Shown here piece by piece: positions 32,592 through 36,595 of a stretch of DNA of 64,000 nt. The position numbers and the translations under genes are program-made. The stretch's first letter is position 1. The number at the start of each line of letters is the position of its first letter. The notes below the pieces were generated by a model. The model worked only from the letters and a program-made list of their open reading frames with translations, was not told the origin of the DNA and ran no database searches. The DNA is from Opitutaceae bacterium (GTDB lineage Bacteria; Verrucomicrobiota; Verrucomicrobiia; Opitutales; Opitutaceae), in the NCBI GenBank assembly GCA_016795565.1, contig JAEUGW010000017.1, positions 12,433-76,432 of the forward strand. Reading direction: 5' to 3'.

Positions 32592-33485
32592 ATGGCACGC
32601 AAGATAGCCTTCCTCAACTACAAGGGCGGTGTTGGTAAAACCTCGCTGATCGTAAATACGGCCGCCAGCCTGGCCCGCCGCGGCATGCGGGTTTTGCTGA
32701 TGGATTTCGACACGCAGTCCAACGCGAGCATCTGGCTGATGAAGCTGGAGCGCTGGAACAAGGTCAACGCCACCGGCACCGGCTCGGTTTACTCCATCTT
32801 CGACCCCGGCACGGCCCGCCTGAAGGATTGCGTCATCAAGGATGTGGTGGAGGGCAAGGACGGGGAAAAACTTCTGCCCGGCCTCGACCTGGTGCCCACC
32901 ACTTTCAACTTGGTGGACCTCGAGGGCGACTATAAGCCCGACCCGAAGCGCCCGTCCTACGTGATTTTTCAGGAGCAGCTCGCCGAGATCGAGGCCAACT
33001 ACGATTTCATCCTCTTTGACTGCCCGCCCAACGTCCTGCGCGCCTCGCAGAACGGCGTTTACTGTGCCGGCGAAATCTACGTGCCCTCCAACCCCGACGC
33101 GCTGAGCCTCATCGGCTTCACGCTGCTGGTGGAGAAGCTGCTGCGCTTCCAACAGACCTCCGCCAGCTTTCGCACCACGGCCATGGGGCCGGCCGCGCAG
33201 GTCTACGGCATCGTCTTCAACTCGATCAAGGCCAACACCGACATCGAGGTGCCCAAGATGCGCATGCAGCTTCGCCTGAACCAATTCAAGACCCAGAAGC
33301 GCGGTTGCGCCCCGGCGGCCAAGATTTGCACCACACAGATCCGCGACGCCATGATCGTGCGCCGCGCCGTCACCCTGGGCCTGCCGGTGTTCCTCGTCGG
33401 CACCGAAGGAGCCGAGGAAGACAGCGTGGCGAACGACTACATGAAGCTAGCCACCGAGATCATCGAGAACGCTCCGCCCTCCTGA
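32592..33485 (+). CDS. ParA/MinD-family P-loop ATPase (orphan)
   Basis: Deviant Walker A with signature lysine (FLNYKGGVGKTS), A' motif LLMDFDTQSN and Walker B FILFDCPPN. There is no MinD-type C-terminal amphipathic helix and no HTH. Confidence 0.9.
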   Translation: MARKIAFLNYKGGVGKTSLIVNTAASLARRGMRVLLMDFDTQSNASIWLMKLERWNKVNATGTGSVYSIFDPGTARLKDCVIKDVVEGKDGEKLLPGLDLVPTTFNLVDLEGDYKPDPKRPSYVIFQEQLAEIEANYDFILFDCPPNVLRASQNGVYCAGEIYVPSNPDALSLIGFTLLVEKLLRFQQTSASFRTTAMGPAAQVYGIVFNSIKANTDIEVPKMRMQLRLNQFKTQKRGCAPAAKICTTQIRDAMIVRRAVTLGLPVFLVGTEGAEEDSVANDYMKLATEIIENAPPS

Positions 33486-33508
33486 GTTTCACGCCAACAC
33501 CCTTTACC

Positions 33509-34480
33509 ATGGCCAAGTTCACCAGCACCGAATGGGACGATATCCGCAAAAAGTTCCGCAATTCCATCATGGCGGACACCGCCCTGATCAGCCTCGCGCA
33601 GAACCTCGACACCAAGGAGTGGCCGCACTCCGGCGATGACGAGAAGCCGTCCAAATACATCGAGTTCAGCTACGACGAATTGCTCATGCTGCCGGAGCTC
33701 GCCGGCAATGCCGACAAGGCCGACCACCTGATCGGTATCCTCAAGGAGACCCTGGCCTTTGATGATCCGTTTGGCGACATGGTCGCCCAAGTCGAGGAGA
33801 CCGCCGCCAAGGACAATCCCATCCTCAAGACCCTGGCCCGCCTCAACATCCCTGCGGCCTACCCGATGGCGCTGGCGAATTTCAGCGAAGGCACGCGCAT
33901 CGTCTGCGCATCCGAGGGCGTCAAGACAGTCGGCGAATTTGCCAACCTCGGCCAGCAGATGGCAACCCGCGTGGTGCTCGGGGGCGATTTCCGCAATGCC
34001 CTGAATGCCCTGACCCAGGGTGATGAGGAGGGGATCGGTCAATTCCTGCCCTTCCGCAAGGGCTCCACCGGCCTGCACCTGGCCGAGGCGATTGGCCTGG
34101 TGGCGGCCGGACTGCCGCGGCCTGATCAACTCGGCTTGGCCAAGGCCTATGGCGCCAAGCTCAGCCCGTCCGATGCCGCCGCCGCCAAGACGCTCACGAA
34201 GGAGCAAATCACGAAGCTGGAGTCGGGCCTCCGCGTGACGGCCACGGCCGCCTTTGAGTGGTTCAAGGACCAGAAGGAGGCGATGAGCAAGCTGCTGGAG
34301 AGCGGTGATTCCACCTACGAGCGCTATTTTGTCGTGATCAATGACCCCGCGCGGGAGGCCATTGCCGTGAAGCTGGCGACGGCCATCCACCCGGTATCAC
34401 GCAAGTCTGGCCCCGTGGCTTCCGCGCCAGCCGAAGCCAAGAAGGGCGGTCTGTTCGGCCGCCTGTTTGGCAAGCGCTGA
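33509..34480 (+). CDS. Hypothetical protein, candidate ParA partner, with a C-terminal basic amphipathic tail
   Basis: 323 aa, starting 23 nt after the ParA-like stop. It ends ...AEAKKGGLFGRLFGKR. It has an HhH-like stretch, GVKTVGEFANLG. I recognise no family. Confidence 0.65.
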   Translation: MAKFTSTEWDDIRKKFRNSIMADTALISLAQNLDTKEWPHSGDDEKPSKYIEFSYDELLMLPELAGNADKADHLIGILKETLAFDDPFGDMVAQVEETAAKDNPILKTLARLNIPAAYPMALANFSEGTRIVCASEGVKTVGEFANLGQQMATRVVLGGDFRNALNALTQGDEEGIGQFLPFRKGSTGLHLAEAIGLVAAGLPRPDQLGLAKAYGAKLSPSDAAAAKTLTKEQITKLESGLRVTATAAFEWFKDQKEAMSKLLESGDSTYERYFVVINDPAREAIAVKLATAIHPVSRKSGPVASAPAEAKKGGLFGRLFGKR

Positions 34481-34498
34481 TCCGGCTAACTCTATTTC

Positions 34499-35251
34499 GT
34501 GGATTCGCAGACCCCAGTTCCTCCGGGGGCGCCGGTTCCGCCGTCGCCGGTCTTCCCGCCAGCCTCGGCCCCCTCGTTTCCCAAGCCTCCGGGTGCGTCC
34601 TTTCCTCCTCCGGGTGGCGGCCTGGGTGCTGTCCGCCCCGGTGGACTGAAGCCGCTCGTCCTGCCGCGCCGTCCGAGCCCATTGCAGCGCGCGCAGGAGG
34701 CCACGCAGGCCAGCGCCGAAGCGCGCAAATCGATCAACACGATCATTTCCCAGTCGCGCCCGCCCTGGGGCGGCACGCCCTCGCTGAACGGCTCGCAAGT
34801 GGAGGCCTTGGAAAAAGCCTTGCGCGCCCTGGAGGCCAAATCCGCCGAGCGGGAGATGGCCATGGCGGAACTCGAGAACAAGCTCGCCGAGCGTGATCGC
34901 GCCTTGGCGGAGACGGAGGCACTGTTGCAGGCCCGCGAAAAAATCATCGACGCCATGCGGAAGGAAAAACCCGCCCAGGGCGAAGGCGGCGGCAGCGCCG
35001 AGGAGATTGCCGCCCTGACCAAGCTCAAGGAGGAACTCGACCGCCAGGAGGCCAGTATCAAGGAGGGTCGCGCGGCCCTGCAGGAGCGCGAGGAATTCCT
35101 TAATCAGAGCGAGACGGCGCTCTTCGAGAAGATGCAGGCCCAGCAGGAGAAGGAAACTGAACTCGAGCAGAAGGCCGAGGACATCAAAAAGGCCATGCAG
35201 AAGGCCGGCTTGGCGCCGGCCGAAGCCAAGGGCCCGGTCGAGAAGGCCTGA
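34499..35251 (+). CDS. Hypothetical Pro-rich plus coiled-coil protein
   Basis: GTG start 18 nt after the upstream stop. About 90 aa of P/G-rich low-complexity sequence is followed by about 150 aa of charged heptad-like sequence. There is no TM segment or signal peptide. Confidence 0.6.
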   Translation: MDSQTPVPPGAPVPPSPVFPPASAPSFPKPPGASFPPPGGGLGAVRPGGLKPLVLPRRPSPLQRAQEATQASAEARKSINTIISQSRPPWGGTPSLNGSQVEALEKALRALEAKSAEREMAMAELENKLAERDRALAETEALLQAREKIIDAMRKEKPAQGEGGGSAEEIAALTKLKEELDRQEASIKEGRAALQEREEFLNQSETALFEKMQAQQEKETELEQKAEDIKKAMQKAGLAPAEAKGPVEKA

Positions 35252-35299
35252 GATGGAACCTCGTCCAGTTTGACCTTTCCAAGACCGCACCCCGACCCT

Positions 35300-36595
35300 A
35301 TGTCCATTTCCTCCATGCCTTCCCGTCTGTTCAAACCTGCCGTCATTCTGGCCTTGCTCACCCTGCCGGTCACGCTCCCGGCCCAGACCAGCAGCAGCGA
35401 GGAAGAACGCCTGCAAAAGCTCCTGACCGACTCGACCCAGTGGTATGTGCCGAAAACCACGGTCTCCATCGGGTTCCGGTTGCTCACCTCCGGCGGCAAT
35501 GTGCGATACGGCAATCTTGGCCGCGTCGATTCTGGCTTGGAAGCAGTGGCACCGGCTTCCGCCGGCGTCGTCACGCGTATTTACAACAACGGCATCGTCG
35601 GGGCCGATGCGGTCCGGGCCAGCGAAAAGGACGCCAACGGCAACCAGATACCTCCCGATGTAAACGGCCGTTACCAGACATTTGGCACCACCACCGCCGC
35701 AGATGGCTCCACCATCACCGTCCAGACCGGCGACTACCGCAGCTATGTTGCCGGACTCACCCGCAACTGGAACTACGCGTCGGCCGATCAGGTGACCGCC
35801 GATGGGCGCATCGGCTTCAGCACCTACCGCGCGACCAGCAACGGCGGCTCCGCGATGAAGGACACCGCCGGCTCCGGCGGCGTTGATTTCCAGGTCACGC
35901 GCGCTCTCGGGAAATTCTCCAGCCACACCGAGTGGGGGCTGACGGCGGGCATCGCGCTCAACGGCATCAACAACAAGACCAGCGGCACGGTTGTTTCCAC
36001 CCTGCATACGAACACCGACTACTATTCCCTGAACGGGCAGCCGGCTCCCACGGCTCCCTACGACAGCACCACCGCGCTGACCGACTTTACCAACAGCCAG
36101 GGCACGGTGTTCCCGTCCTCCTTGGAGACCTCGGTGCCGCTGGCCGCCTTGCCCGGTTCATCCACTTCGTCCGAAGTGGTGGGCGGAACGACGGTGAACG
36201 GCAACTGGCAGATCAAGGGGGCCTATTTCCTCATGCGCATCGGGCCCAGCGTGCGGGCGCAGTTGACGCAGCGGCTCGGTCTTAGCGCCAGCCTGGGCGT
36301 CGCCGGGGCCTACTCGGGCAGCACCTATAGCGTGATCGAAACTTTTGTCGCACCGGACAGCAACGGGGTCGTCATCAGCACCCCGGACCCCGAGAAGAGC
36401 AGCACCAGCGAGTTCCTCACCGGCTACTATGCTGACCTGAACCTCGATTGGGCGGTTTCGGAGCGCACCGGCTTCTTTGGCGGGCTCAGCGCCCAGCAAC
36501 TGGGCGACTACGATCAGGTGCTCAACGGCCGCACCGCCCACATTGACCTCGGCAATTCCGTCGGCATCCGCGGTGGCATCAGCATCAAGTTCTGA
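35300..36595 (+). CDS. Hypothetical outer-membrane beta-barrel protein
   Basis: Signal peptide (LFKPAVILALLTLPVTLPAQT). The sequence is S/T/G/N-rich with alternating strands. The C-terminus ...GIRGGISIKF ends in Phe, as is typical of OMPs. Confidence 0.65.
   Translation: MSISSMPSRLFKPAVILALLTLPVTLPAQTSSSEEERLQKLLTDSTQWYVPKTTVSIGFRLLTSGGNVRYGNLGRVDSGLEAVAPASAGVVTRIYNNGIVGADAVRASEKDANGNQIPPDVNGRYQTFGTTTAADGSTITVQTGDYRSYVAGLTRNWNYASADQVTADGRIGFSTYRATSNGGSAMKDTAGSGGVDFQVTRALGKFSSHTEWGLTAGIALNGINNKTSGTVVSTLHTNTDYYSLNGQPAPTAPYDSTTALTDFTNSQGTVFPSSLETSVPLAALPGSSTSSEVVGGTTVNGNWQIKGAYFLMRIGPSVRAQLTQRLGLSASLGVAGAYSGSTYSVIETFVAPDSNGVVISTPDPEKSSTSEFLTGYYADLNLDWAVSERTGFFGGLSAQQLGDYDQVLNGRTAHIDLGNSVGIRGGISIKF

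Follow-up and report, generated by a model that had tools for sequence, protein, structure and literature searches.

ParA/MinD ATPases are the chief spatial organisers in bacterial cells, and to our knowledge every newly understood partner family of these enzymes has brought a new cargo or a new mode of pattern building. The group, also called A/D ATPases, is defined by a deviant Walker A motif, and matrix binding of the ParA-type proteins maps to their C-terminal regions (PMC11407121). The membrane-targeting sequence of MinD occupies residues 256-270; a single copy of this helix is weak, and membrane binding requires at least two (PMC6803595). N-terminal peptides that carry positive charge activate ParA/MinD ATPases (PMC7993993), and the rules for the group as a whole are such basic activating peptides together with either a C-terminal helix for the membrane or a basic surface for DNA (PMC11407121; PMC7993993). 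In the Pom system, PomX joins an Ala/Pro-rich N-terminal part that holds a basic activating peptide to a coiled-coil scaffold, and the ATPase is much more conserved (PMC7993993). Here we describe a locus in a 64,000-nucleotide (nt) stretch of DNA, referred to as the window, from an Opitutaceae bacterium of the Verrucomicrobiota (assembly GCA_016795565.1, contig JAEUGW010000017.1, positions 12,433 to 76,432 of the forward strand). In it a gene for an orphan ParA-type ATPase, open reading frame 1 (ORF1), is followed by the uncharacterised genes ORF2, ORF3 and ORF4 (Table 1). We found nothing specific on this locus in the literature on Verrucomicrobia or Opitutus.

Results

The pairing of ORF1 and ORF2 is conserved while all around it changes. 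A scan of the GTDB species genomes returned 181 matches and provided 80 loci, every one of them from Opitutaceae, Opitutales or unclassified Verrucomicrobiota, and a metagenome scan seeded with distant ORF2 relatives gave 80 further loci. The loci were divided into three classes by ORF2 identity (at least 60%, 42-59% and below 42%), and the counts given here cover those with enough sequence. ORF2 has ORF1 as its immediate upstream neighbour in 117 out of 126 testable loci (78/79, 9/9 and 30/38 by class). The flanks of the distant loci are unrelated: Pfam matches identify an fn3 protein with a lipoate ligase, a DUF748 protein with an aminotransferase, or a nitroreductase, and others, read by eye, are presumably VWA/Bat-type proteins, an amidase, KdtA and Lpd. 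The adjacency of ORF1 and ORF2 among such different neighbours indicates that the pairing is independent of the flanks. No consistent origin-proximal context was found across the loci. In most Opitutaceae-level loci the identity is 91-98% for ORF1, 71-88% for ispH, 72-95% for alaS, 68-84% for ORF2 and 43-64% for ORF4; the relative L002, nearly identical to the window, is not counted in these ranges. Even where ORF2 identity is down to 33-41%, that of ORF1 is 62-67%, and it stays within 62-98% across all loci. ORF1 thus appears to be under strong purifying selection; order-wide in Verrucomicrobiota it is more conserved than the ispH, and usually also the alaS, of the same loci.

A preliminary description of the window had reported four same-strand ORFs with gaps of 23, 18 and 48 nt, and these, together with the motifs that it quoted, were all recovered at the same positions. 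ORF1 contains NYKGGVGKTS (residues 9-18), LLMDFDTQ and FILFDCPPN. Its deviant Walker A motif KGGxxK[ST], with the signature lysine, is invariant in all aligned orthologues, and these features place ORF1 in the ParA/MinD (A/D) ATPase superfamily. A longer form could start at an ATG at 32562; the start at 32592 is preferred because the orthologues all begin M-[APVT]-RK. ORF1 matched the Pfam families AAA_31 (8e-34, 117.5 bits, cut-off 27) and CbiA (7e-14, 52.2 bits, cut-off 25.4) and reached no NCBIfam equivalog cut-off, scoring 66.9 bits against ParA_partition (cut-off 180), 36.9 bits against minD_bact (cut-off 212.9), and 53.5 and 29.3 bits against the RepA and SopA equivalogs (cut-offs 348 and 725). 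It is 26% identical to Escherichia coli MinD over 177 amino acids (aa) and only about 28-30% identical to plasmid ParAs. Its best relative in the PDB is Soj (3e-15), with an alignment that covers residues 2-190 only and leaves out an unalignable C-terminal third; the A' motif reads DFDTQSNAS. No helix-turn-helix (HTH) was found in ORF1, and no transmembrane helix in ORF1, ORF2 or ORF3. When the orthologues are aligned with MinD, ORF1 ends (...TEIIENAPPS) where the membrane-targeting helix of E. coli MinD starts, and the ATPase itself has no C-terminal helix of this kind. The C-terminal part, in the orthologue alignment, holds a family-specific insert SIWLMKLERWN (family form SIWLMxLxRWN) and an invariant basic motif DIEVPKMRMQLRLNQFK (family form DIEVPKMRMQxRxNQFK). 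ORF1 is firmly predicted to be an intact ParA/Soj-type deviant-Walker-A ATPase without a membrane helix; the motif check, Pfam and the alignment agree with the earlier assignment to ParA/MinD, which had also noted the missing HTH and C-terminal amphipathic helix.

In ORF2 nothing had been recognised apart from a stretch resembling a helix-hairpin-helix (HhH) and a basic amphipathic tail, and we likewise obtained no match in Pfam, NCBIfam, PADLOC or the PDB sequences. Its close relatives number 654, the best 120 at 76-85% identity, and those with names are all hypothetical proteins of Lacunisphaera, Opitutus or Opitutaceae. When 1.84 billion cluster representatives were scanned exhaustively, the family grew to 174 clusters at E <= 0.001, in which full-length relatives (~320 aa) reach down to about 21% identity and all named members, the most distant included, come from Opitutales. 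The conserved blocks of 57 diverse members are WDxxRxxFxxS, ETLAFDDPFGDM, GGDFRxxLNAL and YLPxRxGxKGLHLxEA, followed by a variable linker and a C-terminal peptide. A first AlphaFold model, built on a shallow alignment (17 sequences, 76-85% identity), had a predicted local distance difference test (pLDDT) score of 53.6, and its Foldseek matches were meaningless. The model from the 57 diverse relatives is all-alpha, with a pLDDT of 90.9 and a predicted template modelling (pTM) score of 0.68; its last ~30 residues have low confidence except for a short terminal helix. Foldseek found no relative of this model in the PDB (best E=1.6, TM score at most 0.17) or in BFVD (best E=0.5). The model clearly predicts a folded protein without detectable relatives beyond its own family, and ORF2 appears to found an all-alpha family that is uncharacterised and has been seen in Opitutales alone. 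With this fold and 63-85% identity across Opitutaceae, ORF2 does not fit the fast-evolving, often disordered type of adaptor that had been expected.

No ORF2 match was present among 72,556 plasmids, and a plasmid partition cassette was dismissed for this reason. No ORF1-ORF2 fusion occurs among the long members of the ORF2 family. The family has several unusual forms: P0305 has an AKAEA-rich linker of ~130 residues ahead of the tail, P0341 and P0358 lack a tail but contain long acidic inserts rich in Pro and Glu and an additional C-terminal region, and P0263 has a duplicated N-terminal domain.

The C-terminal peptide of ORF2 resembles a known sequence. E. coli MinD (MG1655) ends ...EEEKKGFLKRLFGG, and its membrane-targeting tail KKGFLKRLFGG is nearly matched by ORF2, which ends ...AEAKKGGLFGRLFGKR; many relatives end exactly in KKGFFARLFGRK, and the family consensus is KKGFFxRLFGRx. 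A basic amphipathic MinD-like tail is found in 50 out of 57 diverse relatives. The linker ahead of it (about residues 295-310 in ORF2) ranges from about 10 to about 130 residues across the family, as expected of a flexible tether. The tail is also retained in lineages without an adjacent ORF1, which argues for membrane binding and not for docking to the ATPase. The hydrophobic moment of the tail was not discriminating, and the peptide had no matches among the PDB sequences. On this evidence ORF2 would be a peripheral membrane protein. The earlier term tail-anchored is too strong for a protein with no transmembrane helix and an amphipathic peptide of the MinD type.

ORF3 was found to be as first described, with Pro/Gly-rich low complexity followed by heptad-like sequence. 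Its Pro-rich N-terminus (residues 1-60), probably disordered, varies in length among orthologues and is followed by coiled-coil blocks with invariant residues. Searches of Pfam, NCBIfam, PADLOC and the PDB sequences gave no meaningful match, spurious coiled-coil matches aside, and neither a signal peptide nor a transmembrane segment was found. A conserved basic motif (LVLPRR, or KRRLSLRP in short forms) lies within the first 20 residues in the short forms only; by analogy with the activating peptides described above it may be a candidate ATPase-activating peptide. ORF3 adjoins ORF2 in 84/85, 8/9 and 8/39 loci of the three classes, and in most marine loci a convergent gene lies directly after ORF2 and ORF3 is undetectable there. 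One ORF2 homologue of 422 aa (P0310) has its C-terminus fused to the most conserved block of ORF3 (REKFVEASETALLEK vs REEFLNQSETALFEK, BLASTP 3e-6), which ties ORF2 and ORF3 functionally, although this fusion is a single cluster and may be a gene-calling artefact. ORF3 appears to be a lineage-restricted third component of Opitutaceae and their near relatives. Neither ORF2 nor ORF3 matched ParB, MinE, McdB or any other curated family, and no ParB-type or ParG/ribbon-helix-helix-type centromere-binding neighbour was found, in keeping with the earlier view that the partners are uncharacterised.

ORF4 is probably an outer-membrane beta-barrel. By heuristics only, its N-terminus has a hydrophobic, signal-like stretch, 13 segments show period-2 amphipathicity and the terminal residues are ISIKF, so that the signal peptide and barrel-type C-terminus of the preliminary description are present and fit a barrel but are not proof of one. 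ORF4 and 22 homologues had no Pfam or NCBIfam match, and neither a meaningful PADLOC match nor a PDB profile match was obtained for ORF4. ORF4 is present in 72/72, 4/7 and 1/26 loci of the three classes. It occurs only where ispH, a single-domain response regulator and a 154-aa protein are also retained; L079-L081 and the marine loci have other flanks and no ORF4. In some loci a further gene separates ORF3 from ORF4, and ORF4 is 34-64% identical where ORF1 is 81-98% identical. Since ORF4 vanishes with the flanking genes, it behaves as a gene of the flank and not as part of the module; its linkage in 72/72 Opitutaceae-level loci says little because the flanks are conserved there too. We conclude that ORF4 is probably outside the module. 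The idea of a dedicated positioning module therefore holds in part: uncharacterised partners accompany an orphan ParA-type ATPase regardless of parB and of the flanks, but the unit does not consist of four genes, given the behaviour of ORF4 and the presence of ORF3 in only 8/39 distant loci.

The window is ordinary chromosome, with uvrB, scpA, rsmB, lptD, glgB, ispH, alaS, metG, men genes and kup. As had been stated, no parB, minC or minE was detected among the 35 larger window ORFs searched with Pfam (most, not all, of the predicted genes), and no carboxysome, microcompartment or chemotaxis gene was found nearby in the same set. The reported lack of a centromere-like repeat array was borne out in 31900-36900; the repeats in 31900-36800 are short, two-copy and at chance level, and no intergenic terminator was predicted in 31900-36900. 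A defence system was rejected, as PADLOC returned just a P-loop match and coiled-coil noise.

Several other features of the window and of related loci were recorded (Table 1). The sole chromosome-organisation gene among the scanned ORFs is scpA, for a condensin subunit, which lies ~12 kb upstream of the module and is unlinked to it in other loci. A signalling cluster is kept upstream in Opitutus sp. GAS368, where a hybrid histidine kinase with HAMP and receiver domains is the counterpart of the cluster's large ORF. The gene for the 154-aa protein is divergent from ORF1; the protein has no Pfam match, shows 67-97% identity across Opitutaceae loci and is always next to the single-domain response regulator. 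IspH/LytB has an N-terminal extension of ~200 residues without a family match, a long form that is kept in related loci; the 3' end of its gene is convergent with ORF4 and overlaps the ORF4 stop by 11 nt. An ORF of 1246 aa has coding-like GC content at third codon positions and no Pfam match at 1e-4. In a metagenome-assembled genome from Lake Baikal ORF1 has a frameshift, which could be a sequencing error or real decay. In one marine clade (L104 and sister loci) ORF1-ORF2 is preceded by two same-strand genes, the first of which we take, from reading by eye, to encode an N-acetylmuramoyl-L-alanine amidase and the second of which encodes a 563-aa secreted protein. These neighbours, not seen in other clades, possibly hint at a cell-wall or division context.

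Table 1. Coordinates of the module, of neighbouring genes and of features in related loci. Positions are those of the window unless a locus is named.
Feature	Position	Strand	Description
ORF1	32592..33485	+	297 aa; predicted ParA/Soj-type deviant-Walker-A ATPase; Pfam AAA_31, CbiA
ORF2	33509..34480	+	323 aa; partner protein, apparently of an uncharacterised all-alpha family
HhH-like motif	33899..33946 (ORF2 residues 131-146)	+	IVCASEGVKTVGEFAN; lead only
ORF2 tail	34439..34477 (ORF2 residues 311-323)	+	KKGGLFGRLFGKR; putative MinD-type membrane-targeting amphipathic peptide
ORF3	34499..35251	+	250 aa; GTG start; Pro-rich N-terminus, two coiled-coil blocks
ORF3 basic motif	34646..34696 (ORF3 residues 50-66)	+	LKPLVLPRRPSPLQRAQ; from orthologue alignment; candidate ATPase-activating peptide
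ORF3 most conserved coiled-coil block	34997..35170 (ORF3 residues 167-224)	+	…EREEFLNQSETALFEKMQAQQEKETELEQ; from orthologue alignment
ORF4	35300..36595	+	431 aa; secreted, probably outer-membrane beta-barrel protein
scpA	19432-20241	-	Condensin subunit
Signalling cluster (26230-30670)	26230-27879	-	HisKA-receiver-adenylate/guanylate cyclase fusion
Signalling cluster	27876-28256	-	Single-domain receiver
Signalling cluster	28283-30670	-	Large ORF
Response regulator	31561-31944		Single-domain
154-aa protein	32014-32478	-	
IspH/LytB	36585-38375	-	596 aa; LYTB domain at residues 208-572 only
1246-aa ORF	44123-47863	-	
Loci without ORF1	L101:3035-3287; L110:5890-6000; L115:5697-6000; L102, L111, L117, L119, L131		Flanks match sister loci with ORF1
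Marine clade neighbours	L104:2248-4965		Two genes ahead of ORF1-ORF2
Lake Baikal genome	L052:2562-3417		Frameshift in ORF1
Oleiharenicola sp. Vm1	L073:6001-7700		Frameshifts in ORF2 and ORF3

Discussion

We propose, with a probability of about 0.55, that the locus holds a chromosomal, Opitutales-specific positioning module of the ParA/MinD family, with ORF1 and ORF2 as the core, ORF3 as a third part and ORF4 as a mere neighbour, in which a membrane-held ORF2 serves to place a membrane-associated assembly. ATP-bound ORF1 dimers would sit on a matrix, and the nucleoid is favoured by the ParA-type motifs of ORF1 and by its C-terminal helix, which is basic and invariant. The dimers would engage ORF2, held by its tail at the inner face of the cytoplasmic membrane, and ORF2, plus ORF3 where present, would stimulate ATP hydrolysis. 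ORF3 may act as a coiled-coil scaffold similar to PomX, with a basic peptide. The cycle of the ATPase would thereby place or spread the membrane-associated assembly of ORF2 and ORF3 with respect to the nucleoid, much like PomZ acting on PomX/PomY, and our leading guess for the positioned process is the placement of the division site or of an envelope complex.

A number of points weigh against this proposal. In eight marine loci from roughly five lineages the ORF1 gene is lost and ORF2 is intact; in L101 the gap retains coding sequence for the final ~40 residues of ORF1. ORF2 in the loci without ORF1 keeps both its N-terminal motif and its tail, and is 85% identical between L085 (with ORF1) and L101 (without), and 73% identical between L104 and L110. 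This suggests either some role of ORF2 that is independent of ORF1 or a move of ORF1 to another place in the genome. Between lineages with and without ORF1, ORF2 identity (73-76%) is level with that of KdtA (73-77%), whereas between lineages that both retain ORF1 it is 82-90% vs 73-82% for KdtA; the faster divergence of ORF2 after ORF1 loss fits a functional coupling of the two and speaks for the proposal. In the complete genome of Oleiharenicola sp. Vm1 (CP180537) ORF2 and ORF3 both contain frameshifts, which could be sequencing errors, or could mean that the genes are dispensable or in real decay in a cultured strain. The basic N-terminus of ORF2 lies within a confidently folded helix, whereas the activating peptides of known partners are flexible, and the module has no linked cargo gene. 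Binding of ORF2 or ORF3 by ORF1 is a proposal, and the presumed matrix of ORF1, DNA or membrane, is drawn from a sequence whose C-terminal third does not align to Soj.

The main rival is that MinD has been split in two, with an ATP-bound ORF1 dimer recruiting two ORF2 molecules and so uniting two weak tails. The closeness of the ORF2 tail to the membrane-targeting sequence of MinD, the end of ORF1 exactly where that sequence starts, and the weak binding of a lone MinD tail (PMC6803595) all speak for such an arrangement, but ORF1 scores as ParA/Soj and not as MinD (36.9 vs 212.9 bits for minD_bact, DFDTQSNAS, 26% identity), ORF2 is intact in lineages without an adjacent ORF1, and no MinC- or MinE-like gene is linked. 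We regard this split as doubtful, and as equally doubtful its consequence, an ATP-dependent bivalent membrane binding with no use of the nucleoid, by which ORF1 and ORF2 would form a membrane-based gradient or oscillator.

The remaining alternatives are each less likely. One of them is a role in DNA segregation or DNA-membrane tethering, in which ORF2 would be a non-canonical ParB or a Noc analogue with its HhH on DNA and its tail on the membrane, and ORF1 its partition ATPase. ORF1 is indeed ParA/Soj-like, and single members of the ORF2 family gave weak matches to the C-terminal domain of the RNA polymerase alpha subunit (alpha-CTD) and to sigma region 4; the former was the Pfam family RNA_pol_A_CTD, matched by 1/57 relatives at 6e-4. 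The HhH-like motif is a lead only, its likeness to the alpha-CTD of E. coli RpoA being weak and not significant (hhalign E=0.11, 16 columns) and finding no support in Foldseek. With no centromere-like repeats near the genes, no ParB domain, no ORF2 in the plasmids searched and the low identity of ORF1 to plasmid ParAs, we consider such a role quite improbable.

Still less probable is an envelope machine of all four genes, with ORF4 either as the cargo or as the outer portion of a trans-envelope complex assembled or positioned by ORF1-3. BcsQ and TadZ with their secretion systems offer a comparison, and ORF1 has a weak BcsQ match. The common strand, the 48-nt gap with no predicted terminator and the position of ORF4 after ORF3 in all Opitutaceae-level loci would agree with it, but ispH, the response regulator and the 154-aa protein are conserved in the same loci, ORF4 is gone where these flanks change and in some loci is separated from ORF3 by an extra gene, it evolves much faster than ORF1, and ORF3 has neither a signal peptide nor a transmembrane segment. 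Finally, Get3/ArsA-like chaperoning, in which a groove of ORF1 would bind the hydrophobic ORF2 tail and deliver ORF2 to the membrane, may be set aside as highly improbable: ORF1 is of the same P-loop class and FlhG keeps its own membrane-targeting helix in a groove (PMC6803595), but the ArsA and Get3 matches are confined to ~40 residues of the P-loop and are far under the cut-offs, ORF1 has no Met-rich client-binding subdomain, and the ORF2 tail is amphipathic, not a transmembrane anchor, and is retained without ORF1.

The proposed positioning module merits study for its strongly conserved ATPase, for its partner without a recognisable fold and for the MinD-type anchor that sits on this partner and not on the ATPase, a layout that is a natural test of how far the MinD switch depends on a helix within the ATPase; the lineages that retain ORF2 without the ATPase are natural comparisons. 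The module points to an unstudied positioning process in Verrucomicrobiota, whose cell biology is poorly known. It is conceivable, if rather unlikely, that ORF1 and ORF2 are a split MinD-like switch whose helix has moved to a partner of new fold, and which in Opitutales determines, with a PomX-like ORF3, the site of division or of another envelope structure. If true, the split switch would be a previously unknown solution to placement, alongside Min, MipZ, PomXYZ and other division-site systems.

Comparison with Known Systems

With MinD the module shares the ATPase superfamily and the peptide KKGF[FL]xRLFG, nearly identical to the E. coli membrane-targeting sequence. Unlike in MinD, the peptide is on the partner ORF2 and not on the ATPase; ORF1 falls under the MinD cut-off with low identity, and minC and minE are not linked. 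Chromosomal ParA/Soj-ParB-parS systems resemble the module in the ParA-type Walker A, A' and B motifs of ORF1 and in Soj as its best PDB relative, but differ from it in the unalignable C-terminal third, in the score (66.9 vs 180 bits) and in having ParB, parS-like repeats and a consistent origin-proximal context, which the module lacks. In McdAB, ParC/ParP and PpfA/TlpT, as may be the case here, a ParA-like ATPase is adjacent to a family-specific partner that bridges to a protein cargo (PMC11407121); ORF2 comes from a different, new family with a membrane tail, and the carboxysome, microcompartment and chemotaxis genes of those systems are not nearby. In PomXYZ of Myxococcus xanthus, likewise, a chromosomal orphan ParA-type ATPase gene adjoins non-ParB partner genes and the ATPase is far more conserved than the partners. 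As judged by the description of PomX and in architecture only, ORF3 is like PomX in combining a Pro-rich N-terminal part, probably disordered, with a basic peptide and, towards the C-terminus, a coiled coil. The differences are that ORF2 has a MinD-type membrane tail and no PomY-like features, that ORF3 is missing in many lineages, that the module occurs in Opitutales and Pom in Cystobacterineae, and that a division role is unproven here. On the features compared, the module appears to be neither a MinD nor a ParABS system, and its likeness to Pom seems to be one of layout only.

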